Source of the DNA: Bdellovibrionales bacterium | Lineage (GTDB): Bacteria; Bdellovibrionota; Bdellovibrionia; Bdellovibrionales; JAKFYE01 | Reading direction: 5' to 3' | Assembly: GCA_965206675.1 (NCBI GenBank) | Contig: CBDBKL010000008.1 | Coordinates: 103,208-167,207 of the forward strand | Length of the DNA: 64,000 nucleotides | Part shown: piece after piece, positions 993-52,710 of the stretch | How positions within the stretch are numbered: the stretch's first letter is position 1 | Layout of the letters: each line of letters begins with the position of its first letter | Translations under genes and position numbers: made by a program | The notes under the pieces: model-generated | The model's database searches: none | Seen by the model: only the letters and a program-made list of their open reading frames with translations | Told to the model about the DNA's origin: nothing

Positions 993-1736
993 TTAATATA
1001 GACAACCCTTTGTTTCCTCTTCAATCTCATACGAAAACCGCAAACTTTCTGTCTTTGGCTCTAATTCAATATCAACTCCCGCTTCAAAAAGAAGTTCTTT
1101 TATTCGTCTGCGTCCGGCTTTAAATACGAAGCTGTCCACTACCAACTCTGTCATCCGCCTTGCGTCTTCTTTTGTCAGCCTTTTTACTTCTTTTCCTGTC
1201 ATCTTTTCCACTACTGTTCTGACAATACCTTTTCTACGACGGGCAGAGCGATTAAAAAGAGGTGCCACTCTCTTTTGCATCCTTTTGCGTACATCTTCTA
1301 ATTGCTCTTTAAAATCATTTAATCCCGCTGCCCTTTCTTCTTGAAGAACAAAATCTATCAATCGTTGCATTTCATCATTCCGTAAAGTCCCTAATCTTCC
1401 TCCAAAATCAACCACATCAACAACCCCCTCTTGAGAGAGAAAGTCCGCTATTCGCCCTTCCCCTTCTTTCACTACAGTACTTAACTCATTATCATTAAAA
1501 AGAGATCTTTCTTTACTTACAAAATCTATCAATCGCTCTCCATTTTCTCTACGTAAATCTTCTAGCCTCTTTTCAAAATCATTTACATTAACAACGCCTT
1601 CCTGAGAAAGAAATTCTCTTATTCGTTCCTCCCCCAACTCATATTCAGCTACCAATCTCTCATGAAAATCATCAGCATGAAGTTGATAAGAAAAACCCCA
1701 TACGAATAAGATCAAAACATATTTTGTTAATGCCAT
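993..1736 (-). CDS. secreted internal-repeat protein, unknown function
   Basis: The ORF is open to 1868, but the Met at 1736 opens a typical Sec signal peptide (MALTKYVLILFVWGFSYQLHA). Two internal repeats are visible (RIREFLSQEGVVNVNDFEKRLEDLRRENGERLIDFV / RIADFLSQEGVVDVVDFGGRLGTLRNDEMQRLIDFV). The protein ends ...KGCLY. Confidence 0.55.
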   Translation of the reverse strand: MALTKYVLILFVWGFSYQLHADDFHERLVAEYELGEERIREFLSQEGVVNVNDFEKRLEDLRRENGERLIDFVSKERSLFNDNELSTVVKEGEGRIADFLSQEGVVDVVDFGGRLGTLRNDEMQRLIDFVLQEERAAGLNDFKEQLEDVRKRMQKRVAPLFNRSARRRKGIVRTVVEKMTGKEVKRLTKEDARRMTELVVDSFVFKAGRRRIKELLFEAGVDIELEPKTESLRFSYEIEEETKGCLY

Positions 1737-1988
1737 AAAATCCTCTACAATCTTTATAAAAGTAGTTTCCAAAATAAAGGATTGGTTTATTTTCTGTAAG
1801 ATTTGTAGCCAGTTTAATGTCAATAAACCAACTGACATCCAATCTATCACCCCCTTTTGAGGTTTCAATCAAAAATTATGACACACAACGACCCCTATAA
1901 ACTTCCAAAAGCACTCTGGCTAAGTGTATTGACAATAGAACTAACTAGACAGCATCCTGAGAATTGAAAGACAAAAAGGAGACCTCCT

Positions 1989-3581
1989 ATGAAAATACTG
2001 ATTTTACTTTTTGTAGGTTGTTTAGATGTTATTGCTCAACCTCATGTGGGTGGCACAATATATTACAGACTACCGAATGCACCTAGCACGCTTCACCCCA
2101 CACGCTCCACAGATGCTTACGCCTCTCAAATTCACTCTTACACATTTGATGGTCTTTTAACTGTCAATATCGACACATATAAATTTGAACCTGGACTCGC
2201 TAAAGAATGGACAGTCTCTAAAGATGGCCAAGAGTTCACATTTACTTTGAGAGAAGATGCCAAATGGCATGACGGAAAACCCGTAACAGCAGAGGATGTC
2301 AAATTCAGTTTTGATATCATCTTTGATCCTAAACAAAAATCTCTCCACTTAAGATCTTATTTTGACAACATTGAAAGTGCACAGGTTTTAGGAAAAAACA
2401 AAATTAAATTCACAGCTAAAAAAAAGTATTTCAAAAACTTAGATATCTTAGGCAGCGGAGGCTTTCTCTCCATTATTCCTAAACATATTTACAATACAAA
2501 AAAGAAAATGAATAAAGACATAGTAGGCAGTGGCCCCTATAAACTCGCAAAGTATAAAAAAGGCCGACAAATAGAACTCACCAGAAATAAAAACTGGTGG
2601 GGCTTTAAAGAAAAACATCTTCAAGGGCAGTATAACTTTGAAAAAATCATTATGAGAATAGTCAAAGATGATAATGTCTCTTTAGAATATTTAAAAAAGG
2701 GACGGATCGACTTTCAAGCTCTATCTTCAGAAGATTATCACAAAAAAACTAAGGGAAAAATCTGGAAAACTGAAGTCATAAAAAATAGAGTTAAAAACCT
2801 CTCTCCAAAAGGCTATGGTTTTATTGGATGGAATTTTAGAAGAAAGGTTTTTCAGGACAAAAAGGTACGAATTGCTCTTTCACACCTGATGAATCGCAAA
2901 TTAATGAATAAAAAATTCCGATTTGGAGAATCTCTTTTAGCGACAGGCCCATGGCATCAAAAAAGTGAATATGCCGATAGCAGTATAAAGGCTATTACCT
3001 ATAACCCTGAAAAAGCCTTGAAACTGTTAAAACAAACAGGTTGGGATGATAAAGATAAGGACGGTATTCTTGAAAAAAACATACAGGGCAAGAAACAAAA
3101 TTTTGATATCACTATTTTATGCCCCAGCAAAGAATCTTTAAAATACCTCACAATGTTTAAAGAAGACGCTAAAAAAGTGGGTGTAAAAATTAATGTTAAA
3201 AGCGTTGAGTGGAACACCTTCTTAAAATTGATAGACGACGGAAAGTTTGATGGTGCTATGTTGGCTTGGGGTGGAGGTTCTATTAATCTAGATCCAAAAC
3301 AAATTTGGCACTCTGATGGAGCACGCCCCGGAGGATCTAACTTTATACACTATAAAAATCCTGAAGTAGATAAACTGATTATAAAAGCACAAGAAACTTT
3401 GGATAAAAAGAAAGGGATTAAAATTTTGCGAAAAGTTTATCGCATTATAGCTAAAGATGCTCCTTATTTATTTTTATTTAACGATGAATACAGTTTTTAT
3501 GCTCACAGAAGCAGGATAAAAAAGGAGAAAGACACCTATAAGTTTGGAATTGGTTCTGACTATTGGTGGCTACAAAAATAA
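1989..3581 (+). CDS. ABC transporter substrate-binding protein, family 5 (peptide/nickel, YejA/OppA-like)
   Basis: 530 aa with a signal peptide (MKILILLFVGCLDVIA). Size and composition fit family-5 binding proteins. AGGAG lies 7 nt upstream of the ATG, and two cognate permease genes follow. Confidence 0.75.
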   Translation: MKILILLFVGCLDVIAQPHVGGTIYYRLPNAPSTLHPTRSTDAYASQIHSYTFDGLLTVNIDTYKFEPGLAKEWTVSKDGQEFTFTLREDAKWHDGKPVTAEDVKFSFDIIFDPKQKSLHLRSYFDNIESAQVLGKNKIKFTAKKKYFKNLDILGSGGFLSIIPKHIYNTKKKMNKDIVGSGPYKLAKYKKGRQIELTRNKNWWGFKEKHLQGQYNFEKIIMRIVKDDNVSLEYLKKGRIDFQALSSEDYHKKTKGKIWKTEVIKNRVKNLSPKGYGFIGWNFRRKVFQDKKVRIALSHLMNRKLMNKKFRFGESLLATGPWHQKSEYADSSIKAITYNPEKALKLLKQTGWDDKDKDGILEKNIQGKKQNFDITILCPSKESLKYLTMFKEDAKKVGVKINVKSVEWNTFLKLIDDGKFDGAMLAWGGGSINLDPKQIWHSDGARPGGSNFIHYKNPEVDKLIIKAQETLDKKKGIKILRKVYRIIAKDAPYLFLFNDEYSFYAHRSRIKKEKDTYKFGIGSDYWWLQK

Positions 3582-3587
3582 CTTGTA

Positions 3588-5620: not shown

Positions 5621-5673
5621 CAATCCCTCAAATTTACTTTAAGATTCAGGACAAAAGTCTCGATAAAATATAT

Positions 5674-7035: not shown

Positions 7036-7557
7036 TTATGGAAAACAAGGAAGTGATGATGTTTGTTTACTCTGCACAGGTGGATCGCTTAGGAAATTGA
7101 CAACATTCTTAAAATCCCATCTCTTTGCTAAATCCAAAGCCATGTTCCCTTGTGCATCTCTAACTTCAAGATCTACACCCGCATCAATAAGAACCCTTGA
7201 AGCATTGAGATTATTCCCTAAAGCTGCTGAATGCAGAGCTGTAAACCCATACACAGTTTGAACCTTTAAATCAGCACCTCTTTCAATAAGAAGTTTCAAA
7301 ACATCTACATTCCATTTATCCAACGTAGACTCATGCAAAGCCGCCCTTCCAAAACGATTTTGGGCATCTATATCAACTCCCTCTTTTAAAAGTTGCTCAA
7401 TTTTTGGAATATCACCATCCCACACAGCTCTAAATAAATCTTGCTCTTGATAACTCAAACCAGTAAGTGCTTGTCGATTCAAACCAGCACTTAAAGGTTG
7501 AGAAAAAATCAAAGCCACTAAAAACGCGAATGAAAATGAACTCCCCAACAATCTCAT
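7036..7557 (-). CDS. secreted ankyrin-repeat protein
   Basis: 173 aa with a signal peptide (MRLLGSSFSFAFLVALIFSQPLSA). It has 3-4 ANK units (G..ALH.A....N..V.KLLIERGADL). The protein ends ...SSLPCFP. Confidence 0.85.
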   Translation of the reverse strand: MRLLGSSFSFAFLVALIFSQPLSAGLNRQALTGLSYQEQDLFRAVWDGDIPKIEQLLKEGVDIDAQNRFGRAALHESTLDKWNVDVLKLLIERGADLKVQTVYGFTALHSAALGNNLNASRVLIDAGVDLEVRDAQGNMALDLAKRWDFKNVVNFLSDPPVQSKQTSSLPCFP

Positions 7558-7783
7558 AAGACTTCCAGTTTACCAAAATTCAAATTAAGTGACTAAATGG
7601 GTTCTAGATTTTTGTCGGAGATTTATACAATAAAAAAGACCAAAGTCCACACCTAAATGTTTCACCTTGCAAAATGAAATCAAGCCGCAATTTATCTATT
7701 CCATAAGCAAAAACCCCTCAACTCAAACCTAGCGCATTAAAACTTGAAGATTTTTTATTTTTGATATATATTGGTATATACTT

Positions 7784-8251
7784 ATGTTTATCGAAAAGAT
7801 CATCTCCCAATTTACAAAACACAACATCCCCTATGCTATTGTTGGAGGTCATGCAATGGCTCTCCATGGAATTCTAAGAGGAACTGTTGATGTCGATCTT
7901 ATTATTAAATGGTCACTTAAAAATCTGAAATCCGTAGAACTAGCATTAAGTGAAATTGGTTTAAAACCTCACCTTCCTATTAAGGCAGAAGATTTATTTA
8001 AATACAGAGAAGAATATATTAAAAATAGAAACCTCATTGCATGGAATTTTATTAACCCCCATAATCCCTCCGAGATAGTTGATATTATCATTACTTGGAA
8101 TTTGAAAAACAATATGATTACGCAGATACATTTAAAAAATAAAAAAATTAATATTTTGTCCAAAAAACATTTAATATCTATGAAAAAATCCAGCCCACGA
8201 GAACAAGATTTTATAGATGCTAAAGCCTTGGAGCAAATTGATGAAAACTAA
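7784..8251 (+). CDS. minimal nucleotidyltransferase-fold protein (possible toxin-antitoxin component)
   Basis: 155 aa. It has the NTase signature IVGGHAMALHGILRGTVDVDLII (GG...DxD) and a C-terminal SPREQDFIDAKALE resembling the K.sgR.kD..D...L tail of small NTase families. Confidence 0.5.
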   Translation: MFIEKIISQFTKHNIPYAIVGGHAMALHGILRGTVDVDLIIKWSLKNLKSVELALSEIGLKPHLPIKAEDLFKYREEYIKNRNLIAWNFINPHNPSEIVDIIITWNLKNNMITQIHLKNKKINILSKKHLISMKKSSPREQDFIDAKALEQIDEN

Positions 8252-8507
8252 AGGCATTCAATTATTTTCCACCGACTATTTAAAAAAATGTAAACAAATG
8301 TCTGTTTATGAAAGATTGAAGTTTCTAGATGATTTTCGCCAGCTCCATACAATGACTACCCCATCAAAAAAATCTAAATTAATTAGCATAAAAGTTCCAG
8401 AAGACTTACTCTCTACGTTTCGTCAATGTGCCAAGTTGGAAGGAATACCCTATCAAACTAAAATTAAACTTTTAATGAAAGAATGGATAACCAATAAGGT
8501 TAAATAG
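8241..8507 (+). CDS. ribbon-helix-helix (CopG/BrnA-like) antitoxin-type protein
   Basis: The ATG at 8241 overlaps the upstream stop by 11 nt. The C-terminal segment KLISIKVPEDLLSTFRQCAKLEGIPYQTKIKLLMKEWI fits the RHH beta-strand plus two helices pattern. The ORF track starts it at 8217. Confidence 0.5.
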   Translation: MKTKGIQLFSTDYLKKCKQMSVYERLKFLDDFRQLHTMTTPSKKSKLISIKVPEDLLSTFRQCAKLEGIPYQTKIKLLMKEWITNKVK

Positions 8508-8657
8508 TACTGAACACCACTAACAGTATAATGTGTTATCCGGATTAAATGTCCGAATACCGACCACTTATTTCCTGAAAGTTCCTTATTTTGGTTTTCA
8601 GTAGGGCACTGACCTTGCTCTTATCCCCTCCTTTATCAACATAAGGAGATAGTGAAA

Positions 8658-9542
8658 ATGAAAAAACCACTGAACAAACCCTACATTAAACTGACTCAAG
8701 ATCTAATGTTTAAGGCCTACTTTATAAGAGACAAAAGTCTTCTTCGCTCTTTACTCAAAAGCTTTCTTCCACTTCCCTCAGATAAAGATATTGAAAAAAT
8801 TGATATCCTAAACCCCGAGATTCCTCCTGAAGCTAAAAAGAAAAAACAAATCATCTTAGATCTAAAACTGGAATTAAACACAGGTGAGAAAATCAACGTT
8901 GAAATGCAATCTGCCTACAAGAAAGGCTTTCTATCTAGAGTCCTGTTCTACTGGGCTAAACTCTACACCGACGGCTTTAAGCAAGGAGCAGAGTATGAAA
9001 CACTTCATCCCACCTACTCTTTGATCTTTACTGAATTTTCAGTGTTTAAAGAAACTAAAGACGTTGTCACTAGCTTTTCTTTACTCTCAGATAAAGAGCC
9101 ACATTTTTGTCTCAATAGGGATTTAAAGATAGTGTTTGTAGAACTTTCTAAGTTTAAAACAAGTCTAGAGGGTTTAATTGATTTAAGAGACCATTGGTGC
9201 TATATTATTAGGCATTCAAGTCAAATAAAAGAGAGTGAGTTAGAGCAGTTGGCTCAGAAAAACCAAGAGATGAGGAAAGCTATGGGACTTTTAAAGAATA
9301 TGTCGTTAGAAGATAAGTTGAGGTGGCAGGAAGAGGATCGTCTTAAAGCCATTAGTGATGAGAAAGCTGAAAAGGCTTGGGCCTATGATCAGGGATTAGA
9401 GAAAGGAATGGAGAAAGGTGAGCAAAAAAAACTTCAGCAAATCGTTTATAGAATGTTAAAAGAAAAAGCTGACCTTATTACAATTGAAAAATTCACGGGC
9501 CTATCTGAAGCTGAAATTAAAAAAATCCAAAAAAGAAAATAG
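8658..9542 (+). CDS. Rpn-family PD-(D/E)XK nuclease / putative transposase-like protein
   Basis: It has the N-terminal block DLMFKAYF...LLKSFLPLP and the nuclease core ILDLKLELNTGEKINVEMQ (D...ExQ). AAGGAGA lies 8 nt upstream of the ATG at 8658. A GTG at 8652 is an alternative start. Confidence 0.65.
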   Translation: MKKPLNKPYIKLTQDLMFKAYFIRDKSLLRSLLKSFLPLPSDKDIEKIDILNPEIPPEAKKKKQIILDLKLELNTGEKINVEMQSAYKKGFLSRVLFYWAKLYTDGFKQGAEYETLHPTYSLIFTEFSVFKETKDVVTSFSLLSDKEPHFCLNRDLKIVFVELSKFKTSLEGLIDLRDHWCYIIRHSSQIKESELEQLAQKNQEMRKAMGLLKNMSLEDKLRWQEEDRLKAISDEKAEKAWAYDQGLEKGMEKGEQKKLQQIVYRMLKEKADLITIEKFTGLSEAEIKKIQKRK

Positions 9543-9720
9543 GTGAAAATAGGTAAATTTGCCATAGTACGACAAATTGTTTTCATTTTATATGGGTTAT
9601 TGTTAAATAATTATTAGAAATAACTTCTGAGTTCGTCACAAAAAACTTAATTTTTAGGATGTAAAATCTGCGTTTCATATTTGACCGGACTCGATCTCTC
9701 CTGGTCTAAAAGTTGACATT

Positions 9721-11034
9721 TTACAGTCTTGTGGGATCCTCCATACCGTCTTCATCACTAATAGAAAGTTCTGAATCATCATCACGATCTTCAGGATATC
9801 GCATAAAGAGTTTTGCAAGGAACCTACTTAAAGATGGTGTCTCAGACACAATAATAAACAAAGCTGTCAAAACAATGGAAAAAGGAATGATGGCAAAAAT
9901 TGTATCTTGAATCCACAAACCCTGCTCCTCCATCATACCTCTCTGCAAAGGCAAAGTGGCTAAAACAGCGCACGCTAAACCTCGAGGTCCCATAGCTGTT
10001 ATTGCCATAGCATCTAAACGAGAAAACTTCGAAGGACGGAAGATAACTCTTACTGAAATATACCGAGTTACAAAAATCAAAAGCGAAATAATAACAGCTA
10101 TAACAACTTTATGAACACTTCCAAATTGAATTAACATTCCAAGGTAAATAAAAAACGTCGTCTTTAAAATAAAAACAATCTCCCCCAGAAGTTTCATCTC
10201 ACGATGATTAACAGCCTTTCGACTTAAAATAGAATCAAAAACTCTAGGAAATAAATCTAAATTCGCCAACGTAAAACCCAAGGCCAACACAGCCATAGCT
10301 CCATTAAATCCTAATAAATCCACAATCCCATAAACAAGAAAAGCAAAAGCCTCACCTGAAAAACGAAGATCTGTTAAAAATGAAAAACAACGCCTTAAAA
10401 AAGACCAAAGTAAACCACCCAGAACACCAAAAACCACAGCCTGAAGAGTTTTTGGCCCTACACCAATTAAAATATCATTAAAATCAAATTGGCCGGAAAG
10501 TGAAGAATCTAAAATCACTAAAAAAAGCACAATCGCTAAAATATCTGTAAAAGCAGACTCAAGTGATAAGATCGTCTTGGTTTTTTCTGTAATACTTAAG
10601 TGCTTCACCATAGGAATCACAACGGCACTTGATGTGCTCCCCACCCCCAAACCTACAAGAAGAGCCACAGACCAAGGCTGACCCCCAAAAACCTTAACGG
10701 CCATCGTTGCCAAGAAAATAATTAACCCTGCACCTAAAATCGAAATAGCTAAAGCCGGAAGACTGGAAGTTAAAAGATCCTTCGTTCTTAAACTCAATCC
10801 CCCTTCATAGAGAATAACAATTAACGCCATTGTGGAGAGAAAAGGACCAAACTGACCTAGATCATTAGAGTGAAGCACCCCTGTCATTGGACCTAAAACG
10901 TAACCAATCGCTACCAAAATAAGAAGATCAGGAACCTTTGTCTTAATAAAAAACCACTTTAAAGCATGGCCCAGAAAGAAAAGGACAGCTAAACCGATAA
11001 CAGCAACCGCCATATATCCCCCCCCTCTACTCAA
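9721..11034 (-). CDS. cation:proton antiporter (Na+/H+ exchanger family)
   Basis: 437 aa, strongly hydrophobic multi-TM protein with an acidic cytoplasmic tail. It lies 9 nt downstream of speA on the same strand. Confidence 0.7.
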   Translation of the reverse strand: MSRGGGYMAVAVIGLAVLFFLGHALKWFFIKTKVPDLLILVAIGYVLGPMTGVLHSNDLGQFGPFLSTMALIVILYEGGLSLRTKDLLTSSLPALAISILGAGLIIFLATMAVKVFGGQPWSVALLVGLGVGSTSSAVVIPMVKHLSITEKTKTILSLESAFTDILAIVLFLVILDSSLSGQFDFNDILIGVGPKTLQAVVFGVLGGLLWSFLRRCFSFLTDLRFSGEAFAFLVYGIVDLLGFNGAMAVLALGFTLANLDLFPRVFDSILSRKAVNHREMKLLGEIVFILKTTFFIYLGMLIQFGSVHKVVIAVIISLLIFVTRYISVRVIFRPSKFSRLDAMAITAMGPRGLACAVLATLPLQRGMMEEQGLWIQDTIFAIIPFSIVLTALFIIVSETPSLSRFLAKLFMRYPEDRDDDSELSISDEDGMEDPTRL

Positions 11035-11043
11035 ATTCTAAGA

Positions 11044-13002: not shown

Positions 13003-13041
13003 GAATTTTTATATGACACAAATTATAGTCAGTTCCAAAGG

Positions 13042-15426: not shown

Positions 15427-15668
15427 GATATCAACCCTAACAGATTTTTTTCTCTCTCAAAACCATTCCCTTTAAAAAAGGATTTATAACAACTTTTCCC
15501 AAAGTCAACTCACTAGTTGGTCATCAATATTTTAAGATCCCTGTGCACTCATAACTCCTTTCAACATTAACATTGACTCCCAATAGGCTCTATATATACT
15601 CAAGATATCTAGACTGGTTTGAGATTATCTGTAGAATTGTTTAAGGCCTATAAAAAAGGGGAATTTTT

Positions 15669-16415
15669 ATGACACTCACCAAAAGTATTTTCTATATGAC
15701 CTTGTACGCAACCTTCTTTTCCTTTTTCCAAATAGCCTACGCTCATATATCAAACACTGAAACCCTAGAGGAAAACTACGTTAGAAGTATCGAGGCTCCC
15801 GCTGAAAAAGCCATGGTAGAAACATGGGAAAATCTTACCCTAGAATTAAAGAGAAAAGAGAAGTTCCTCTTTAAAGCCGCAGAAGAGAACGACGTCCTAA
15901 GCATAGAAACCCTTTTAAATGAAGGTGTTGATGTAGAAGCAAGAGACAGTAAAGGCAGGACAGCTTTACATATAGCTGCACAATCGAACAGCTCGGGGGC
16001 TATAGAAGCTCTTGAGAAAGCCGGGGCTGATTTAGAGGCCAGATATTTTGGAATGACACCTCTATTTTATTCTTCAGAAAGAGGCCATAAAGAAGCAACA
16101 AAGACTCTATTAAGATTGGGAGCCGATGTACATGCAAAATCTAGAAATCTTTCACCCGGAAGGACAGTTATGCATGGTGCTGCTCTGGATAGTAACTCTG
16201 AAATAATAAGAATTCTTTTAGAGGCAGGTGCTAATCTAGAAGCTCGAAATGATGACGGGGACACACCTTTAATCTATGTTGCAAGAAATGGGATGGGTCA
16301 GTATGAAATGATAAGAATCCTCATTAACTTCGGGGCTAACATAGAGGCAAGAAACAATGTTGGAAAGACAGCTCAAGATTATATTCTCACAAGCCTTAAA
16401 CTTGATGAAGAATAA
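15669..16415 (+). CDS. secreted ankyrin-repeat protein
   Basis: 248 aa with a hydrophobic leader ending AYA and at least 5 ANK units (GRTALHIAA...GADLEAR etc.). Confidence 0.85.
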   Translation: MTLTKSIFYMTLYATFFSFFQIAYAHISNTETLEENYVRSIEAPAEKAMVETWENLTLELKRKEKFLFKAAEENDVLSIETLLNEGVDVEARDSKGRTALHIAAQSNSSGAIEALEKAGADLEARYFGMTPLFYSSERGHKEATKTLLRLGADVHAKSRNLSPGRTVMHGAALDSNSEIIRILLEAGANLEARNDDGDTPLIYVARNGMGQYEMIRILINFGANIEARNNVGKTAQDYILTSLKLDEE

Positions 16416-16500
16416 AATCCATCAAATGACATAGAGAATACATTCACACTTTAAATTCCTTTAGCATCTGTGAGTAACGCCTACTTTAAGGCAAAATATA

Positions 16501-17989: not shown

Positions 17990-18093
17990 CCCAACTCTTA
18001 TCTAGTATCTTTACGATATCGTCAAGTTGAACCACAAAGAAAACAGCAAGACTATTGAGTGGAAATTTTTACGCTATTGTGTAAAGCGGACAC

Positions 18094-19023: not shown

Positions 19024-19263
19024 GGTTCCATTATTTATTAGTTTCCAATGATTAGGAAATCATTTTTAGCAATGACTTCATTTTAATTTGCGAAACCTCT
19101 CTAAGACAAAAGTCTAGAGAGAGTAACTTTAACAAAGCGGGGGATTACTTTTTATAAGAAGTCAAACAGCAATACCAAAGAAGATAAAAACTTGAATGTG
19201 TTGCTGACAGAACTTTAATTTTTATAAAATCAAATTAACTCAATACAAGGATGTATTGAGTGG

Positions 19264-19304
19264 GGGGAGGCAGATGCCTACGGAAGGGCGGCTCCCCATT
19301 TTTT
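19264..19304 (+). terminator. orphan intrinsic-terminator-like hairpin in a divergent intergenic region
   Basis: GGGGAG (19264..19269) pairs with CTCCCC (19292..19297), with an inner GCC/GGC pairing, and is followed by six Ts. No + strand gene lies upstream. Confidence 0.35.
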
Positions 19305-19515
19305 ATCCCTGCTTTAAATAAAAAATGAATGCTCATAAAAAATAACAACTTAAAGATCTCTATCGAACCCTTGCGTATACGGCTTCTTATTATCTTAGAG
19401 CCCATCTATTAAAAGGAGAGTGCTCTCAGAAAGAACAATGAGCTTGCTCTTTCCAAAAAGTCATTGATCTAAAGAAATTTATGATGATACGCTGACGTTG
19501 TTATAGGGAGGTCTA

Positions 19516-31185: not shown

Positions 31186-32325
31186 CTAAAAATTTCCCAC
31201 CTTTTCTTCCCATCCGAGCTCTTCTTTTAATTTCTCCCACCGATTTTTTGCATCCTTTAAAGACTCCAGAAATTCTCCACCTCTTCTTTCAGCATAAAAC
31301 AGTGGCGTTCGTCCCTCTTCATCTTCAGCATAAATATCTGCGTCGAACCTAATGAGAGCTTTGACAACTTCAAAAGTGCCAACTCTTGCCGCTTCATGAA
31401 GCGGAGTCCTCCCCCTATTGTCTCTTGCATTAGCATCTGGATCGTAATTAATAATCATTCCTGCATTATCTAGAGTTCCATGCATTGCAGCCCAATGAAG
31501 TGGCGTCCTTCCCCTCTTATCCACGGCATGAACGTCTGCTCCTACTCTAACAAGATGATAAATAACATGCGAAGAATTCCAAAACCGTGTTGCCGCTCTA
31601 AAAAGTGGGGTAAGCCCTTCCTTAGTTCTTGCATGAACATCTGCTCCTGCATCTAAAAGAACTTGTATTTCATCTGGAGTTCGAGCCTCCGCCGCAAAAT
31701 GTAGAAGAGTGCTTCCCGAATTATCTTCTAAATTTATATCAGCACCATTTTGAAGAAATAAATGCACTAAAGTTAAAAACTCCTGAGTTGTACTCCCATA
31801 TTCTTCCCTGCTGAGTCTATCTGCACCTACAAACAAAGGCACTCGCCCTTGCCAATCTCTCGCATTGACATCTGCACCCAGAGAAATAAGAGTTTCTACA
31901 TTCTTTATCTTTATATTTTTAGCTGATATAGCCGTGTGTAATGGTACCCTGAGTAAATCATTTCTTATATTAACATCTGTACCTGAAGTTATAAAAGCTT
32001 CTATGTGCTCTGGTGTTCCATATATTGCAGCAATATGCAGTGGCGTTTGTCTCCAGTAACGATCAGCTACAGTGACATCTGCACCTAAAGAAATAAGAGT
32101 TTTTATCTGCTCCGGAGTCCCATATCTTGCAGCATAATGTAAGGCTGTTTGCCCTGAGTACATATCTCTGGAATTAACATCTGCACCCAATGCCACCGCA
32201 ACAATAAGAGCACCCACTTCCTTTGCATTATCAGCTTTAAAGGCTCTATCATCTGTCGCATACACATCAAATGAAAAACAAAATAGTAAAGCGACAGTAA
32301 ATAATTGTATTATTATTGATTTCAT
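31186..32325 (-). CDS. secreted ankyrin-repeat protein
   Basis: 379 aa with a signal peptide (MKSIIIQLFTVALLFCFSFDVYA) and about 9 ANK units (TPLH.AA..G....I..LI..GADVN). Confidence 0.85.
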   Translation of the reverse strand: MKSIIIQLFTVALLFCFSFDVYATDDRAFKADNAKEVGALIVAVALGADVNSRDMYSGQTALHYAARYGTPEQIKTLISLGADVTVADRYWRQTPLHIAAIYGTPEHIEAFITSGTDVNIRNDLLRVPLHTAISAKNIKIKNVETLISLGADVNARDWQGRVPLFVGADRLSREEYGSTTQEFLTLVHLFLQNGADINLEDNSGSTLLHFAAEARTPDEIQVLLDAGADVHARTKEGLTPLFRAATRFWNSSHVIYHLVRVGADVHAVDKRGRTPLHWAAMHGTLDNAGMIINYDPDANARDNRGRTPLHEAARVGTFEVVKALIRFDADIYAEDEEGRTPLFYAERRGGEFLESLKDAKNRWEKLKEELGWEEKVGNF

Positions 32326-32516: not shown

Positions 32517-32921
32517 ATGGAAAAAAAAACCTCTGAACCTATACTTTTTTTTGATGGAATTTGCGGATTCTGCAACGCCACTGTGACCTGTCTTTTAAAA
32601 TGCGATACAAATCATGTTATCAAGTTTGCAACTCTACAGGGTCCAACAGCGAAAAAATATCTTCCAACATCAGACACTCAAAGTCTCACATCAATCGTAC
32701 TGCTGGATAATGACACCATCTATAGAGAATCTGATGCATTCCTTCAGATTTGTAAACACCTTGGGGGTTTTTGGAAGTGCCTACTTATATTCAAAATCGT
32801 TCCCCCCTCTATAAGAAATGCTATTTATAATTTTATAGCCAAACACAGACGAAAAATTTTGGGTGTTAAAGAAACATGTTATGTCCCGAAAAAAGATGTC
32901 CGTCCCTATTTCTTAGATTAA
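32517..32921 (+). CDS. DCC-family (DUF393) thiol-disulfide oxidoreductase
   Basis: 134 aa with the N-terminal signature FFDGICGFCN. Confidence 0.75.
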   Translation: MEKKTSEPILFFDGICGFCNATVTCLLKCDTNHVIKFATLQGPTAKKYLPTSDTQSLTSIVLLDNDTIYRESDAFLQICKHLGGFWKCLLIFKIVPPSIRNAIYNFIAKHRRKILGVKETCYVPKKDVRPYFLD

Positions 32922-38582: not shown

Positions 38583-39007
38583 GTAATATCTTAGAAAAAC
38601 AAAAACTATTAACAGAAATGTATCATTCGGCACCTATTGCTAAAACAACAGGTATCACCTTAGAGTACAATGAACTTCATCAAGCCGTTTTTTATTTGAA
38701 ATATAATTCTAAGTTAGATCATGGAATGGGAGGAATCTTTGGCGGCACTTTGGCAACCCTTATTGATTTGGCAGCATGGTTTACAGCAGCTCCACAGTTC
38801 GATCATTGGATTTTAACTGTAGAGTACACAACCCGTATAGTCAGGGAATCTTCTCAAATAGACCTCTGGGCAAGGGGTATAAATAGAAAGATTGGAAGAA
38901 AGACAGCCTTTACGGATGTAGAAGTCACAGATAAAGAGAAAAAACTTATAGCCTATGGATCTGGAACATTCCGCAGCACTAATCGCACGATTAAGAAAAT
39001 ATATTAG
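38579..39007 (+). CDS. PaaI-type hotdog-fold thioesterase
   Basis: 142 aa. Its start overlaps the yitT-like stop (ATGA). Size and the GG..GG..ATLID pattern fit PaaI/YigI-like thioesterases. Confidence 0.55.
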   Translation: MSNILEKQKLLTEMYHSAPIAKTTGITLEYNELHQAVFYLKYNSKLDHGMGGIFGGTLATLIDLAAWFTAAPQFDHWILTVEYTTRIVRESSQIDLWARGINRKIGRKTAFTDVEVTDKEKKLIAYGSGTFRSTNRTIKKIY

Positions 39008-39134
39008 GGGCTTTTGAAAAAGCGTTATCTACTTCGTTGCAATCACTCAAACACTCACTCCGACGTAGGAAAAACTACGCCTCCGTTCGGTTTGAGCTTG
39101 AACGCCTCGTATCTAACATTTTTTCAAAAGCCCC
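39007..39134 (-). repeat. family B palindromic element, copy B1 (128 nt, inverted orientation)
   Basis: The closing stem is GGGGCTTTTGAAAAA / TTTTTCAAAAGCCCC. The core is the reverse complement of the B2/B4/B6 core (…GGCGTAGTTTTTCCTACGTCGGAGTGA…). It starts on the last base of the upstream stop codon. Confidence 0.85.
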
Positions 39135-40320: not shown

Positions 40321-40761
40321 CTATTCGCAGGTGATAATAGAAGTGTCGTAACGACTAATGCGATAAGTGAAAAGGCAGTTTCCCGTCGCATTCATTCTTT
40401 GTAAGAGTTCTTTACCGTATAAAGTGAAGATAGAACCTCGTACCATTTCCCCTTGGATATGTTGATCCAATATATAGGTGTAGGTGTTCATTAGAGAAGA
40501 CGGAGAAGAGTTGCTTCGAATCGCAGTGAGTGCAATCTGAAGTTTGTTCCCATCTTTTGAGCACGTCACATCATTTAAAGTGACTCCTTCAATGGCTGAA
40601 GAGAGACCCCACGTAAAGTTTTCGGCAGACTCGCAGGCACTGGACTCCGGAGAGGAAGAAGGAATTGTAAAGTTGATTTCTTCCGCTGAGAATGCATGGG
40701 CCGAAAAACTAAAAATTTGAAGAGTTAAAAATCCGATCATCGTCATAATTGCTGTATTCAT
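40321..40761 (-). CDS. secreted hypothetical protein
   Basis: 146 aa with a signal peptide (MNTAIMTMIGFLTLQIFSFSAHA). No family was recognised. Confidence 0.45.
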   Translation of the reverse strand: MNTAIMTMIGFLTLQIFSFSAHAFSAEEINFTIPSSSPESSACESAENFTWGLSSAIEGVTLNDVTCSKDGNKLQIALTAIRSNSSPSSLMNTYTYILDQHIQGEMVRGSIFTLYGKELLQRMNATGNCLFTYRISRYDTSIITCE

Positions 40762-45011: not shown

Positions 45012-47954
45012 ATGAATTTGTCATTTTTCTTTTCTATAAAATTATTATTTTTCACGACTCTATTGGGATTCTCTTCTCCCCTTCTCTACGCTCAAACTGA
45101 GAACAGTTTTGAACAATTAATCCCTACACTTTCTCAGGGAGAGCAGTTTCCCTACATGACAGAGCAGGTCTTAATGTCGCCTCCACAGCTCATCCAAGCT
45201 AATAATACAAAACTTGTTGAAGCATTAGAAAACAATGACCTCTATCGACAACTTATCGAAAACCACTCTCCCCTATTGACTCTAGAAATAAGCTCCGACA
45301 TAAAAACCGGAGGATTTGTTCAATTTAAAGTTGTTAAAGAGAGCTTTATTTCTAATTGGGGTCAGGAACTTTCAGCTTTTGCTTCAGAGAATAAATTCAA
45401 TAGCTCTCATCAAGTTTTACAAGAAATCTCTAGGTTGTTATCAGAGAGGCCTTATCTGGCCGCTACCCCTCATGATTTTGTCTCCGCCTTCAGTCAAACC
45501 TTAGATAGGAGTGTGGATCGAGAAGAAATTTTTCGAGCTCTTGAGCATGATGATATTTCAATATTGGAGAGGGTTCTTGATCCTTACCCAGAAGCAAGAG
45601 GGTTTAAACCGATGGCTTTTGCCTTAGAGTCAGATAGAGAAAAGGAATACTATTTAGATGCTTTAAGAGAAATGATGGAAGCTAACGAGAGGATGAACCA
45701 ACTTTTTGTGACTTATATGCTAGCTTGGCAAAAGGAAGCAGAAAATGTAAAAGGAAGTTTAGAAAAATATTTAATAGAACTCACTGAAGAAAAATTAGTT
45801 TGGTTAAGAGAATCTGGTTTACAAAAAGGTTATATAAAGCGCATTACAAATGCTGCTCAAGAAATAAAGGCCATTCGCAGAAGAATATTCGTTCGCATTA
45901 AAAGTATAGAAAGAGAGATTGGGCGTCACCAAGACGTTGTAACAGAGCATGTTCAAACAAGTAAAAATAGTCTAACATTAGTAGAGGTTCATCCTTCCAT
46001 TGGTATTTTTCGAGGCTACATAGGTGGAGATTGTTCGAGCAGTACATGCTTTGGTTACCCCTACAGTTCTGAAGAAAGGGTTTTCTTTATACTTAACAAG
46101 CGAGGAGAGGATGTCGGTTACTTAAATGGGGCTATGGTCAATACCCTTGATGGAAAAAGAGCCTTTCTCGTCAATGGCCTTGCCGGCGCAAGGATATCTA
46201 AAGAGATGACAACAATTATATTTGCTGCTCTAAGCAAAAGTCGCAGGGAATTAGGTGTAGAAAAAGTGCTTCTTCTAGGCCGACAAAGCCATTTACCAAA
46301 TCTTGACTACACGGAAATTAGACGAGCCTTTGATAGTCATGCTGGAGCTGACGTTCCTATTATTTTTTTAGATCAAGATTTTCGAAAGATTATTGATATA
46401 TATTCTACAATTACTAGATATGATAGTCCCAACAGACTGTCGATGGGTCATCAAATCGAAAACATCGAAGAAATCCGAGAAAGCACACGTGTGATAACTT
46501 CGGAACGACCATTTGCCCCGCCTCAATTATCAGACTTTAACCCCTCAGACCTCCAACCAAGGCAAAAGTTTTTGATTAATTTATACCACCCTCATATTGC
46601 TGAAGAGTTTGGAATAGATGCCTTAAAAAATCCTGAATATGCTGAAAAGGCAGGAGTGAATTTAGTCGAAGGTAGAAACTTATTGGACATCGTTCAAAAT
46701 AACGACAGACTTCAAAATTTTCAATATATGCTAAGGTTGGAATCTATACTGAATGATTTCTCCTTTTCTCTGGAAGAAACGGCTCCATTCATAATGTTTC
46801 AGTATATAAGGGGCCTTGTCAGTGCTCCAGATTTTTTTAAAACTCCTATTTATGAGAAAGTCATAGAAACTCTTGAGCAAGCCATTGCAAAAGCAAAAAG
46901 CCCTGAAGATTTAAGAGGATATATCACCGAAGTTTTCCCTTATGTTCGCGGCAAAAGAATGGGGGAAATCGTTGAAAGAGTTTTAGATTTTGTCATTGAA
47001 AGTAAAAATGCTGACTTACTTGAACAGTTTGCTCATGAGGTTTTCCCTCGTGCTCGTATCCCTAATAAAGCCGAGATGATTAAAAAAACTCTCAGAGCTG
47101 CAAGAGCACTAACAGAAAAAAATAGAATATTAGTTTCTTTAGCTGCTAGAACCTTACCTCGAATACGGTTAGTTCAAAGAAAAAGTCTCATTGAACACGT
47201 TAGATCTACCGCCATTGCATTAAAAGATAGGGATAGTTTGTTTTGGTTAGGTTTTTATAACAACTTTGGTAATGAGAAGGGGTGGCAATTAATGAGACAA
47301 ATTACTCAAATTATTCAAAAAATGCCACCACATCCATATCTATTTTCGTTTCCATTTTTTAACCCCAATCGCCTCACAACTCAGGACTATGAACAGCAGC
47401 TTGAGATGCTTAAAGATTATTTTTCCCTTACCCCCAAACAATTCTTTGATCTATTTTTTGTCGATGAAATAGTAGGCCGAATATTAGCAAGCGATGCCGA
47501 TCTAGAGTCAAATAAGAAAACAGTTCTCAAACTTATTAAAGAATTTACTGAGAGTAATATGGTCCCCATATTTTTAGAACGATTAGATCAAATGATACTC
47601 TCTAATCCCCTGACAGATGGTATACAGAAAGTGTGGACAAATGACATGTGGAAAATTTGGGTAGATGGTATGTGGAAAATGGTAAAGAGAACTATAGAAG
47701 TGGCAATTGAACTTCAAGATCACAAAACTATTGAGACACTTGAGAAAGAATTCTTTTCCAAGGTTACACTCGAAATTGAAGAGTACAAACATGAGTTTTC
47801 GATTACCAGGGATGCCATCCGTACATTCGGCCATGATAAGAATTGGGAAACATTAGAAAACAAACTTCAAACTACTAATAATAACCGTTCGAAAAGGTCA
47901 GACAATCAACCTGTTGTACGTAAATCCTCTGACCTACCTTGTTTTGCCCCATGA
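45012..47954 (+). CDS. large secreted protein, unknown function
   Basis: About 980 aa with a signal peptide (MNLSFFFSIKLLFFTTLLGFSSPLLYA). A TTG at 45003 is an alternative start. The C-terminal half is helical-repeat-like. The protein ends ...SSDLPCFAP. Confidence 0.6.
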   Translation: MNLSFFFSIKLLFFTTLLGFSSPLLYAQTENSFEQLIPTLSQGEQFPYMTEQVLMSPPQLIQANNTKLVEALENNDLYRQLIENHSPLLTLEISSDIKTGGFVQFKVVKESFISNWGQELSAFASENKFNSSHQVLQEISRLLSERPYLAATPHDFVSAFSQTLDRSVDREEIFRALEHDDISILERVLDPYPEARGFKPMAFALESDREKEYYLDALREMMEANERMNQLFVTYMLAWQKEAENVKGSLEKYLIELTEEKLVWLRESGLQKGYIKRITNAAQEIKAIRRRIFVRIKSIEREIGRHQDVVTEHVQTSKNSLTLVEVHPSIGIFRGYIGGDCSSSTCFGYPYSSEERVFFILNKRGEDVGYLNGAMVNTLDGKRAFLVNGLAGARISKEMTTIIFAALSKSRRELGVEKVLLLGRQSHLPNLDYTEIRRAFDSHAGADVPIIFLDQDFRKIIDIYSTITRYDSPNRLSMGHQIENIEEIRESTRVITSERPFAPPQLSDFNPSDLQPRQKFLINLYHPHIAEEFGIDALKNPEYAEKAGVNLVEGRNLLDIVQNNDRLQNFQYMLRLESILNDFSFSLEETAPFIMFQYIRGLVSAPDFFKTPIYEKVIETLEQAIAKAKSPEDLRGYITEVFPYVRGKRMGEIVERVLDFVIESKNADLLEQFAHEVFPRARIPNKAEMIKKTLRAARALTEKNRILVSLAARTLPRIRLVQRKSLIEHVRSTAIALKDRDSLFWLGFYNNFGNEKGWQLMRQITQIIQKMPPHPYLFSFPFFNPNRLTTQDYEQQLEMLKDYFSLTPKQFFDLFFVDEIVGRILASDADLESNKKTVLKLIKEFTESNMVPIFLERLDQMILSNPLTDGIQKVWTNDMWKIWVDGMWKMVKRTIEVAIELQDHKTIETLEKEFFSKVTLEIEEYKHEFSITRDAIRTFGHDKNWETLENKLQTTNNNRSKRSDNQPVVRKSSDLPCFAP

Positions 47955-48004
47955 TTTGTGTGATTGCAACAAAATCGGTAACACTTCTTCATTTGCAATT
48001 AGAC

Positions 48005-48130
48005 GGACTGTTGAAAAAGTGTTAGATACGAGACGTTCAAGCTCAAGCCGAACGCAGGCGTAGTTTTTCCTACGTCGGAGTGAAGGCTTGAGTGATTGCA
48101 ACGAAGTAGATGACGCTTTTTCAACAGTCC
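48005..48130 (+). repeat. family B palindromic element, copy B2 (126 nt)
   Basis: The closing stem is GGACTGTTGAAAAAG / CTTTTTCAACAGTCC around the conserved core. It ends 11 nt before the ATG of the next gene. Confidence 0.85.
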
Positions 48131-48141
48131 AAAGGAAAATT

Positions 48142-49104
48142 ATGAATAATTTGTTTTTAGAACATTTTCCAATAAAGTATCCCATCATAGGCGCACCGAT
48201 GTTTCTCGTCAGTGATGGAAACTTAGTAACAGCCGTTTCCGAAGCTGGAGGGTTAGGAGCTTTTCCAGCTCTAAACTACAGACCTATTTCTAAATACCGA
48301 GAAGCGATACAAGAGATAAAAAAGAGAACCGATAAACCCTTTGGAATTAATATTATTGCTCAAAACTCCAATAAATATCGTGATGAACAATTAGACATTG
48401 CCTTGGAAGAAGATGTTTCATTAATTATTACATCTTTGGGTGCTCCTGGTAATATGATTCGCAGAATTCATCAGACAAACACCAAGGTTTATTGTGATGT
48501 TATTAGTTTAAGGCACGCACAAAAAGTGGCAGATGCTGGTGCTGATGGGTTAATTGCTATTTCTAGCGGAGCCGGCGGTCATGCGGGAAACATTTCACCC
48601 TTTGCATTGATTCCCTATTTAAAACATCACACACAACTACCTATTGTTGCAGCAGGAAGTATTGTTGACGGTAAGGGAATGCTAGCCGCTTTAGCATTGG
48701 GTGCATCGGCAGTCTATATGGGCACACGCTTTATTGCTTCAAAGGAATCCTGTGTTTCTGAAGACTATAAACAAGCTATTTTAAAAGCACGATGTGAAGA
48801 CATTGTGAACACAGAACGTGTGGATGGTTTTCCGGGAAATTTTATTCTTACCGATCGTCTTAAAAAAGTGGGCATAGAAGCCGGATTTATAGAATCTATA
48901 TTAAATCGTATCCCTAAATTTAAGAAAACTTTGGCTCTATTGAGAGCTGGAAAAGTTTTATTTGAAAAACCCAAAGGGAAAATATCTTACCAAAAGATTT
49001 TCTCTGCAGGACAGGGAGTTGGAAATATTAATGAAATACTTTCTGCTAAAGAAATTATTATGCAAACCATAGATGAATATGAAAATATAAAACAAAACCT
49101 TTAA
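48142..49104 (+). CDS. NAD(P)H-dependent flavin oxidoreductase (nitronate monooxygenase / FabK-like)
   Basis: The Met at 48142 (MNNLFLEHFPIKYPIIGAPM) gives the family-typical N-terminus. The ORF-track extension from 48088 lies inside repeat B2. The motif GAGGHAG is present. Confidence 0.75.
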   Translation: MNNLFLEHFPIKYPIIGAPMFLVSDGNLVTAVSEAGGLGAFPALNYRPISKYREAIQEIKKRTDKPFGINIIAQNSNKYRDEQLDIALEEDVSLIITSLGAPGNMIRRIHQTNTKVYCDVISLRHAQKVADAGADGLIAISSGAGGHAGNISPFALIPYLKHHTQLPIVAAGSIVDGKGMLAALALGASAVYMGTRFIASKESCVSEDYKQAILKARCEDIVNTERVDGFPGNFILTDRLKKVGIEAGFIESILNRIPKFKKTLALLRAGKVLFEKPKGKISYQKIFSAGQGVGNINEILSAKEIIMQTIDEYENIKQNL

Positions 49105-49109
49105 AGATT

Positions 49110-51111: not shown

Positions 51112-51385
51112 ATCACTATATTATACTCGCAATTATAATTCAATCAAGTGAATTATAGTTGTATTTTAAAGAGACAGGGTTCGCCGCTTTCCCCCTTTGG
51201 GCTTTTAAACTTCGCTCTCGATGACTTCAGGCGTTGTCCAGTCAACCGCTTTGGTTTTGAAAAAAATTCTCGCTTGAACCTTTCCAGAACGAGCATTCTG
51301 AGTCATCACGATTTTATTTATAATGACGTTTATCTTTACCTTTGTTACTAACACTCTGATGCAAATCTTAAAGGAGTCTTACATT

Positions 51386-52519
51386 ATGTTCGCAAAATTA
51401 ATTCTAACAGCCCTTATAGCCATTTTTGTCTTCTCTGAATCGCTTTATGCTACAGATGGTAAAGCGGATACAGATATAGCACTTCAAGTAGAAAAACACC
51501 TTGATAAAAAATCTATAGAAGCCCTACCAACTCTCACTGAGAGGAAAAAGAAAAAACAGTGGTTTGACGCTGCTAAAACGGGAAATCTACTGCGTCTAGA
51601 GCAACTGCATAAATTCGTTAATATGAATGGAAGGCATTATAGAACCGGACGGGCAGTGTCTCATATGGCTGTAATACATAGACAATATAAGGCTCTAAAA
51701 AAATTTAAAGAGCTGGGGGGAGATTATCTCATTAGACAAGCCAGAGATAACCAAGGAAGAGCACCAATCCACTATGCTGCATCATTTGGAGACTCTACCG
51801 CTATAAGAACTCTGTTTAATGAGGGAGCTGACTTGGAAGTCAGGAGCAAAGATGGACTGACACCTCTATTGGAGGTTCTAATTTTCGGAGGTTGGAATGT
51901 TTCCCAAGCACAAGAAGCCTTTAATACGCTTGTTGAACTAGGAGCCAATTTAAATGCAGAAGATAACAATGGTGTGAGGGCCTCAGAGTTAGCACTGGAC
52001 AAGGGATGGATAAAAGAAATACCAGATAACAGCGTAGATAAAAATGCTGAGGCACAAACTGAAAGTCTACAAGAACACATCCGTGGTACCGCAAAGAAAA
52101 AAATGTGGTTTGAAGCTGCTAAAGCCGGCTTTGCACCCCTTCTAGAAGAATTACATGAAACGATGATGATTGATATAAATGCACAAGATTCCCGGGGAAA
52201 CACAGCGGCCCATTTAGCTGTGATATTTCGTCAATATGATGTTCTAAGAACACTTAAAGATTTAGGTGGGGACTATCTTCTTGGGTATGCAAGAATGTCT
52301 GGTGGATTAGCACCATTACATGCCGCTGCCATAAATGGTGACCTTATAGCTATACGAACTCTATTTGATCTAGGGGCTTACTTAGAAGTCAAGGACAGTC
52401 GAGGGATGACGCCTCTATCTTGGACTCTAGCTGCTGGAAGACAAGAAGCCTTTAATACCCTTGTTGAGCTAGGAGCAAATACAGATGTAGAATATCTAAA
52501 TTCGGAAGAGGCAGCTTAG
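51386..52519 (+). CDS. secreted ankyrin-repeat protein with internal duplication
   Basis: The Met at 51386 has AAGGAG upstream and opens a signal peptide (MFAKLILTALIAIFVFSESLYA). Two homologous halves are present. A conserved tail continues out of frame to 52578. Confidence 0.8.
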   Translation: MFAKLILTALIAIFVFSESLYATDGKADTDIALQVEKHLDKKSIEALPTLTERKKKKQWFDAAKTGNLLRLEQLHKFVNMNGRHYRTGRAVSHMAVIHRQYKALKKFKELGGDYLIRQARDNQGRAPIHYAASFGDSTAIRTLFNEGADLEVRSKDGLTPLLEVLIFGGWNVSQAQEAFNTLVELGANLNAEDNNGVRASELALDKGWIKEIPDNSVDKNAEAQTESLQEHIRGTAKKKMWFEAAKAGFAPLLEELHETMMIDINAQDSRGNTAAHLAVIFRQYDVLRTLKDLGGDYLLGYARMSGGLAPLHAAAINGDLIAIRTLFDLGAYLEVKDSRGMTPLSWTLAAGRQEAFNTLVELGANTDVEYLNSEEAA

Positions 52520-52710
52520 AGCTAGCACGAGAACGGGGATGGTTACCAGAGGCATCAGAAAAAGGTCCCTGCTATTGATCCCCATATAAAAACAGAGAGA
52601 GCATTTTTCAGAACTTGTGCAGACAAAAATTAGAAAAAAACAAGCTTACACTTTTAGTAGCATTGTAATGAACAACACTCATTCTTCATTATCAATTTAG
52701 CAAGTTCTTG

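Follow-up and report, generated by a model that had tools for sequence, protein, structure and literature searches.

What does it mean when proteins of different architecture, all of them apparently destined for export, run out in the same few residues? The question is raised by a 64,000-nt stretch of DNA from a Bdellovibrionales bacterium (NCBI GenBank assembly GCA_965206675.1, contig CBDBKL010000008.1, positions 103,208 to 167,207 of the forward strand; subsequently designated the window), in which five genes for proteins with putative Sec signal peptides end in a short tail containing one Cys. The carriers are a helical-repeat protein, three ankyrin-repeat proteins and a large protein of 980 aa, subsequently designated p980. 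The original prediction, made from the sequence without database searches, took this tail for a portable tag on otherwise unrelated secreted proteins. Translation reproduced the tails of all five proteins (Table 1), which have the form x-[P/G]-C-[F/Y/L] plus 0-2 residues and follow a polar unstructured linker in the four intact genes and in the fifth, frameshifted one. As detailed below, the presence of this tail on exported proteins is real, statistically robust and evolutionarily conserved.

All five tagged proteins start with a basic n-region and a hydrophobic core followed by an L-x-A cleavage site (LHA/DD, LSA/GL, LQA/IS, LYA/QT and LYA/TD, the slash marking the predicted cut). Their export is predicted from these N-terminal signals, which were called by eye and with a hydrophobicity scan instead of a dedicated predictor. 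In the helical-repeat protein the signal reads MALTKYVLILFVWGFSYQLHA with cleavage before DD, and in the 173-aa ankyrin protein it ends in SQPLSA with cleavage before GL. Three of the five proteins matched ankyrin repeats in Pfam, and the other two gave no match; NCBIfam added nothing to this result for the tagged window proteins, and for the helical-repeat protein, which has no family match in either collection, a PDB sequence search was empty as well. According to pairwise BLAST, the tagged ankyrins of the window are mutually 25-35% identical, which is the level of generic repeats and not that of paralogous copies, and the mutual similarity between tagged and untagged ankyrins is equal. The helical-repeat protein and p980 matched nothing in the rest of the compared set. 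Hence, the description as otherwise unrelated is right for the two non-ankyrin proteins, but it is an overstatement for the three ankyrins, which have a common fold.

How often would such tails be expected by chance? The pattern [PG]C[FYL] occurs six times in the 18,378 residues of the 56 probable proteins of the window, and four of these occurrences lie within the last three residues. From the amino acid composition 0.03 tails are expected, and four to five were observed (Poisson P(>=4) = 4.5e-8; P(>=5) = 2.9e-10). The tail was also confined to proteins with a signal peptide, as had been predicted: it is present on 5 of the 17 signal-peptide proteins of the window, whereas the 39 others all lack it (Fisher P = 0.0016). 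A relaxed pattern was found in 4 of 3,050 open reading frames (at least 140 aa) of control DNA from other bacteria (160 loci, 2.3 Mb), versus 12 of 79 in the focal loci, a proportion that is biased upward because the loci of the relatives were located through tagged proteins. The window by itself accounts for four to five tagged proteins among its 56.

Conservation of the Cys-aromatic end had been set in advance as a test of the prediction. Indeed, the tail is retained in every orthologue found, covering four of the five window families at 54-81% identity; the 173-aa ankyrin protein is the only family for which no orthologue was recovered. The p980 orthologues (54-81% identity) end in GLPCF, EQPCFY, DRPCF and DPPCF, and a fragment ends in DTSCF, where the window protein has PCFAP. 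The orthologue of the 669-aa ankyrin protein (P0009 on contig L083; 78% identity) ends in NEEELKPCF and thus in the same LKPCF as the window protein, that of the helical-repeat protein (P0130 on L085; 71%) ends in KIKSCIY versus TKGCLY in the window, and for the frameshifted ankyrin gene (ank377/ank400; 70%) KGPCY in the window corresponds to ENPCY on contig L001. The Cys and the next hydrophobic residue are kept in all orthologues, including p980 pairs with 54-56% identity, and stand beside a stretch of 15-25 residues ahead of the Cys that is unalignable in the families with orthologues. In the alignment of five full-length p980 orthologues, P976, C977 and F978 are invariant and the residues ahead of them cannot be aligned; in the helical-repeat protein the 20 residues preceding the Cys are wholly different between the two orthologues.

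Two further tagged ankyrin families with Sec-type leaders were detected on contigs of relatives, namely ank149 on L002 (ending PPELCY) and ank187 on L085 (ending KKKTCGY), bringing the total to 15 tails from seven families, all of them from metagenome-type assemblies of a narrow clade. All 15 tails contain the Cys. It is preceded by Pro in ten cases, by Ser in two and by Gly, Thr or Leu in one each, and followed by Phe (nine tails), Tyr (three) or Leu, Ile or Gly (one each). Its position is -2 in nine tails, -3 in five and -4 in one, and the chain ends with Phe or Tyr in 13 tails and with Pro in the remaining two, resulting in the consensus x-[P>S,G,T,L]-C-[F>Y>L,I,G]-(nothing, Y, P or AP)-COOH. 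The seven families are unrelated or linked only via generic ankyrin repeats, which bears out the proposal of a portable unit and speaks against a relic of shared ancestry.

The tail is missing from p980 homologues with 30% identity or less. None of about 140 distant representatives of the wider p980 superfamily is tagged, and neither is any of 119 unrelated long ankyrins. Inheritance within the p980 superfamily and a general trait of ankyrin proteins were thereby ruled out as sources of the tail, which is accordingly specific to the lineage and not a property of the folds that carry it.

A tail of merely 2-5 residues might nevertheless be devoid of function: it could have arisen by chance, from a terminator or another DNA element repeated at gene ends, from an alternative genetic code, or because the 3' ends share a recent ancestor. 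Such an origin could draw on the AT-rich codon bias, which favours CCT TGT TTT/TAT TAA, on a dispersed repeat abutting one of the gene ends and on the narrowness of the sampled clade, but it has to contend with a Poisson probability of about 5e-8, with the absence of the tail from the 119 and about 140 control proteins and its near absence from the 2.3 Mb of control DNA, and with the invariance of Cys and aromatic residue next to an unalignable linker. The DNA itself speaks the same language. Different families have nothing in common in the 70 nt past the stop codons, each of the three stop codons is in use, and the codons for Pro (CCT/CCC), Cys (TGT/TGC) and Tyr/Phe vary synonymously, as do the flanking ones; these differences rule out a shared terminator, a miniature inverted-repeat transposable element or a cassette boundary as the source of the tail, and place the selection for it at the level of the protein. 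An alternative genetic code or read-through is ruled out as well, since 9 of the 56 genes, conserved ones included, have TGA as a genuine stop. Taken together, we regard a functionless tail as hardly credible.

The dispersed repeat is intergenic, measures about 130-210 nt and contains direct repeats as well as a hairpin-like core; four copies are present in the window (Table 1). One copy begins directly past the stop codon of p980. The orthologous locus L084 lacks the repeat, and the gene ends there with PCF-TAG. Therefore, the PCFAP extension of the window protein may have arisen incidentally when the repeat was inserted.

The tail of the fifth gene is read in a frame adjacent to the annotated one (52513..52578), which yields SLELARERGWLPEASEKGPCY. 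The syntenic contig L001 of a related organism carries an intact orthologue that is 70% identical and ends in SLEIAREWGWLPEASENPCY (WLPEASENPCY). DNA alignment of both genes revealed an insertion of two nucleotides, AT, in the window (window GTAGAATATCTAAAT versus GTAGA--ATCTAAAT in L001, at about position 52492-52493). Deletion of AT in silico results in a 396-aa protein with the end SLELARERGWLPEASEKGPCY and thus with GPCY, and the frame downstream of the insertion is still intact and conserved. Hence, the out-of-frame GPCY tail represents the true ancestral end of the gene. The insertion would reflect an error of assembly or, alternatively, a mutation that has only very recently made the gene a pseudogene.

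Table 1. Tagged genes of the window, tail-less comparators and associated features. Positions refer to the window; strand in parenthesis.
Position	Feature	C-terminal end	Tail codons	Cys codon	Remarks
993..1736 (-)	247-aa helical-repeat protein, predicted Sec export	...EIEEETKGCLY	G-C-L-Y, 996-1007	1002-1004	sole Cys, C245
7036..7557 (-)	173-aa ankyrin-repeat protein, predicted Sec export	...KQTSSLPCFP	P-C-F-P, 7039-7050	7045-7047	sole Cys, C171
20007..22016 (+)	669-aa ankyrin-repeat protein, predicted Sec export	...NEEELKPCF	P-C-F, 22005-22013	22008-22010	sole Cys, C668; linker of ~55 aa
45012..47954 (+)	980-aa protein (p980), predicted Sec export	...RKSSDLPCFAP	P-C-F-A-P, 47937-47951	47940-47942	Cys residues: conserved pair C341/C346 and tail C977
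51386..52578 (+)	ankyrin-repeat gene, predicted Sec export, broken near 3' end	...NSEEAA (annotated frame, stops 52519)	G-P-C-Y, 52564-52575 (adjacent frame)	52570-52572	
52492..52493 (+)	2-nt AT insertion relative to L001 orthologue				frame shifted 22 codons ahead of tail; from DNA alignment
15669..16415 (+)	comparator: 248-aa signal-peptide ankyrin without tail	...KLDEE			no Cys at all
31186..32325 (-)	comparator: 379-aa signal-peptide ankyrin without tail	...EEKVGNF (aromatic, no Cys)			mature part Cys-free
39000-39133 (inverted)	dispersed repeat copy				
47955-48166 (+)	dispersed repeat copy				
53877-54088 (+)	dispersed repeat copy				
63073-63284 (+)	dispersed repeat copy				

If the tail is functional, what could it do? 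Six of the seven families have no Cys in the mature protein apart from that of the tail, and the p980 family has one additional conserved CxxxxC pair. Cys makes up 0.95% of the window proteome; at this rate the 669-aa ankyrin protein should contain about six, and one is present. The mature parts of the two tail-less ankyrins (15669..16415 and 31186..32325) are likewise free of Cys. Since the cargo is otherwise devoid of thiols, the tag supplies a single unpaired one, placed where the flexible linker ends. In the compartment reached by Sec export, thiols are normally oxidised. An AlphaFold2 model of the 173-aa ankyrin protein assigned a pLDDT (predicted local distance difference test) below 50 and no secondary structure to the last 16 residues. 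In the model of p980 (8 sequences, pLDDT 66) helices predominate, with beta structure in the centre, and residues 957-980 also have a pLDDT below 50. The unstructured ends of the two models, comprising the last 16-24 residues, fit the polar low-complexity linkers of 15-55 residues.

The central beta region of p980 retrieved weak GNAT-like matches in Foldseek (E 0.01-0.1, obtained with a low-confidence model), which is only a hint at a GNAT-like domain. Residues ~307-500 in this region contain the conserved motif GIFRGYIGGDCS..CFGY..ERVFFILN..GYLNG. The central module is common to 364 cluster representatives, many of which are fused to ankyrin or other repeats; this is a widespread, uncharacterised family of predicted exported proteins. 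Another candidate with a Cys close to its end, the predicted exported 146-aa protein encoded at 40321..40761 (-), ends in SIITCE (SVITCR in L001) and was excluded, as it has four Cys residues and no aromatic residue after the last one; its conserved penultimate Cys probably engages in an intramolecular disulfide and is distinct from the tag.

The lone Cys at the tip of a flexible linker, on mature domains otherwise free of Cys, suggests a thiol handle used after export for covalent tethering or coupling, the tail being a lineage-specific tag. We put this reading forward tentatively, giving it somewhat less than an even chance. The N-terminal signal would route the protein to Sec, with signal peptidase I cutting at L-x-A. 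The folded cargo (ankyrin repeats in five families; of the other two, one has a helical repeat and one is the large putative-enzyme protein) would be followed by the fast-evolving polar linker of 15-55 residues, at the end of which the free thiol, framed by a Pro and an aromatic residue that lend it a recognisable shape, would form a covalent bond. An intermolecular disulfide might join the tail to another tagged protein or to a dedicated partner in the envelope or at the surface; alternatively, a lipid might be S-linked to the tail Cys. As a result, the cargo would be tethered by a stalk to the cell envelope or surface, or it would be coupled into complexes. Of this scheme, we infer export itself, the covalent bond, the partner or enzyme and the tethering as its outcome.

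Several observations weigh against a covalent handle. Recognition of the tail appears to be loose, because 0-3 residues follow the Cys and because Gly, Ser, Thr and Leu are tolerated before it, and two predicted exported ankyrins of the same window (15669..16415 and 31186..32325) manage without a tail. No CPBP protease, acyl- or prenyl-transferase or dedicated thioredoxin-fold gene adjoins any of the tagged genes in the window, nor is there a CPBP-family gene among the Pfam-scanned window proteins. The gene for a DCC1-like thiol-disulfide oxidoreductase (32517..32921, +) adjoins the tail-less ankyrin gene 31186..32325, and no link to the tail was seen. Without a transmembrane (TM) helix, the tail cannot meet an intramembrane enzyme in the manner of the known Cys-bearing sorting signals. 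Moreover, the nearest named relative, OZ220494.1 (L003), has no tagged gene in the 22-kb locus examined. The visual assignment of the signal peptides and the upward bias of the proportion in the focal loci have to be counted here as well.

Rather than being bonded through its thiol, the Pro-Cys-aromatic end could be recognised non-covalently by a periplasmic or outer-membrane receptor, the Cys merely being part of the epitope. The reader might belong to a second step of secretion (to the surface, to prey or to a host), it might be a PDZ protease or chaperone of the Prc/Ctp/DegS type, or recognition might be BAM-like. The terminal Phe or Tyr of 13 of the 15 tails is indeed reminiscent of the beta-signals of outer membrane proteins and of PDZ ligands, the tail sits at the extreme C-terminus past a flexible linker, the cargo is effector-like, comprising ankyrins and one large protein in which a domain resembles an enzyme, and delivery beyond the periplasm is poorly understood in Bdellovibrionota. 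However, in PCFP and PCFAP the aromatic residue is buried away from the free carboxylate that PDZ and beta-signal readers need, and position -3 is occupied by Pro and not by the Tyr or hydrophobic residue of Y-x-F-type signals. As for a genuine beta-signal of an outer membrane protein, the aromatic end is there, but the cargo is ankyrin-like or helical and a disordered linker precedes the tail. Finally, the sole invariant residue is the Cys (15/15), which is otherwise kept out of the mature domains, pointing to thiol chemistry over shape. A receptor of this kind therefore seems unlikely to us, although it is not far-fetched.

The CaaX box, with a Cys exactly at position -4 ahead of two aliphatic residues and X, operates in the eukaryotic cytosol and is mimicked by effectors such as Legionella AnkB. 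It resembles the present tail in being a very short, TM-less C-terminal Cys motif at the end of a flexible region, often on ankyrin-type effectors; its Cys thiol is lipidated and the residues past the Cys are dispensable. The present tail differs by the preceding Pro, the following aromatic residue, the Sec signal peptide and the varied spacing of the Cys. In agreement with the original prediction, the tails do not conform to a strict CaaX box: the Cys is found at -4 in 1 of 15 tails, namely CFAP of the window p980, and the orthologues end there in CF or CFY. CaaX substrates are cytosolic, and by inspection all carriers of the tail have signals of the Sec/signal peptidase I type.

Could the tail still be directed at a host? 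In this case, eukaryotic host enzymes would lipidate the Cys by S-acylation or non-canonical prenylation, or the host machinery for thiol retention or disulfide formation would act on it, placing the ankyrin effector on host membranes or in host complexes. Ankyrin repeats are classic modules of host interaction, the CFAP tail of the window has CaaX spacing, the PCY and LCY ends resemble the GTCY end of IgM/IgA, and no close relative was found among GTDB species representatives (using p980 patterns) or in the metagenome collection. The lineage has a reduced genome, and sponge-associated metagenome-assembled genomes (MAGs) of Bdellovibrionota are rich in ankyrins (PMC9944714). On the other hand, the CFAP extension coincides with the dispersed repeat inserted directly after the stop codon, and the CaaX rule is not the conserved feature, because the Cys is at -4 in only one of 15 tails and at -2 in the orthologues. 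The N-terminal signals are of the Sec type and not signals for injection into the host cytosol, and periplasmic ankyrins that are not effectors are documented in Bdellovibrio and Rickettsia (PMC4686830; 10.1101/2022.02.23.481736). All in all, we deem a host-directed motif improbable.

For the thiol handle, the preferred reading, there is a bacterial precedent. MYXO-CTERM-type signals are cleaved by CPBP/Rce1-like myxosortases and their Cys is thought to be lipidated, and Myxococcota use Cys-dependent C-terminal tags on surface proteins routed through the type II secretion system (10.1101/2023.06.07.544157; PMC11980579). MYXO-CTERM and the present tail have in common an invariant Cys in a short C-terminal signature, an N-terminal signal and a distribution over many unrelated proteins of one lineage (dozens in case of MYXO-CTERM). 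The Cys of MYXO-CTERM is believed to be lipidated for surface anchoring, and Myxococcota were once grouped with Bdellovibrio in the Deltaproteobacteria. However, MYXO-CTERM comprises ~30 residues and always includes a TM helix and an Arg-rich cluster, by which it is held in the inner membrane for the intramembrane protease, whereas the present tail has 1-3 residues past the Cys, neither a helix nor a basic cluster, and ends with Phe, Tyr or Pro. MYXO-CTERM is defined by its TM helix and Arg cluster, and the tail, having neither, is not a member.

The tails were also compared with other known signals. They contain no motif or helix as in LPXTG (sortase), PEP-CTERM (exosortase) or GlyGly-CTERM (rhombosortase) signals, in which LPXTG, PEP or GG is combined with a TM helix and a basic tail, and no C-terminal domain of NCBIfam or Pfam matched. 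They are no lipoboxes either ([LVI][ASTVI][GAS]-C, closing an N-terminal signal peptide), since the Cys is C-terminal, is preceded in 10 of 15 tails by Pro, which the lipobox excludes, and since the N-terminal signals are of the L-x-A type. The C-terminal domain (CTD) of type IX secretion substrates is a folded beta-sandwich of about 70-100 aa; in the present proteins the last 16-24 residues have a low pLDDT and no structure, and no CTD family matched. Dot/Icm (T4BSS) substrates, which have no Sec signal, carry a Glu-rich E-block within their last ~20 residues. Runs of Glu stand before three of the five window tails and are missing from the other two, and all five proteins have Sec signals. 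In comparison with models of type IV secretion effectors (NCBIfam), ankyrin matches scored far below the cut-off, reflecting generic repeats.

Two further systems illustrate what a Cys near the end of an exported protein can accomplish. The secretory tailpiece of IgM and IgA, a conserved segment of 18 residues in one protein family, ends in GTCY-COOH. The tails ending in PCY, LCY and CGY look like its TCY in form; there is no homology, and the tailpiece is not moved between folds. In Salmonella LppB, a penultimate Cys located in a coiled coil beside the Lys that is cross-linked to peptidoglycan forms intermolecular disulfides (10.1101/2025.11.13.688167). Thus, in both cases an unpaired, near-terminal Cys of an exported protein gives rise to intermolecular disulfides that control assembly or tethering. 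Concerning the cargo, periplasmic ankyrins with Sec signals have been described in Bdellovibrio (Bd3460; PMC4686830) and Rickettsia (RARP-1; 10.1101/2022.02.23.481736). They represent the same cargo class in the same compartment, one of them even in the same phylum, and no C-terminal Cys tag was found described for them.

The claim that the tail has no trailing TM helix was borne out, only 1-3 residues lying between the Cys and the stop codon, and a bacterial signal of this form was found neither in the literature nor in Pfam or NCBIfam, as had also been proposed. In the described prokaryotic tags that we found (LPXTG, PEP-CTERM, GlyGly-CTERM, PGF-CTERM, MYXO-CTERM and relatives), a TM helix presents the tag to a membrane enzyme. 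A Cys tail of 2-5 residues on exported proteins would need another mode of recognition and another chemistry than these TM-dependent tags. In its most far-reaching form, the proposal is that the tail defines a TM-less C-terminal Cys-aromatic class of post-export signals, in which a dedicated periplasmic or outer-membrane machinery lipidates or cross-links the lone thiol and thereby displays a repertoire of ankyrin-type effectors on the cell surface. This we consider possible, yet rather doubtful. If true, it would amount to a prokaryotic extracytoplasmic counterpart of CaaX processing, operating in probably host- or prey-associated Bdellovibrionales. In an uncultured lineage, the tail would then single out proteins with a role in the envelope, at the surface or as effectors, and such a very short portable tag could be useful for protein display.

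In which organisms does the tail occur? The lineage that carries it is a reduced-genome, ankyrin-rich member of the Bdellovibrionales, and the G+C content of the window is about 37%. The leucyl-tRNA synthetase (LeuRS) encoded in the window has 88% identity to its counterpart in OZ220494.1, a 1.82-Mb chromosome labelled 'MAG: Bdellovibrionales bacterium', and 57-65% to those of other Bdellovibrionia MAGs. Peptide patterns of p980 retrieved no relative among 185,579 GTDB species genomes, and the metagenome collection contained no LeuRS closer than 55%. Relatives were found only in the Logan assemblies of two sequencing runs and on one other NCBI/ENA contig. Bdellovibrionota MAGs reported from a glass sponge are comparably small and ankyrin-rich (PMC9944714). 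The window ankyrins flanking the LeuRS gene are absent from the syntenic region of OZ220494.1, indicating that the tagged ankyrins belong to the variable part of the genome.

Some features of the surrounding DNA remain to be described. The gene of the 669-aa ankyrin protein is directly followed at its 3' side by a tRNA-Arg gene (22034-22110), and the ankyrin region 7036-22016 close to this tRNA gene also comprises a PD-(D/E)XK transposase-like gene (8652..9542) and a toxin-antitoxin-like pair (7784..8507). Downstream of the lipoprotein gene 52711..53241, at 53385-53717, there is a tandem array whose period is ~118 nt. An inverted copy related to this array is found near the tRNA-Arg gene (22967-23023), and similar sequence follows the ankyrin gene in L001 (about 11600-11758). 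Finally, a gene for a small signal recognition particle RNA (61097-61195, +) lies upstream of dnaX (61278..62996), which is the ordinary arrangement.

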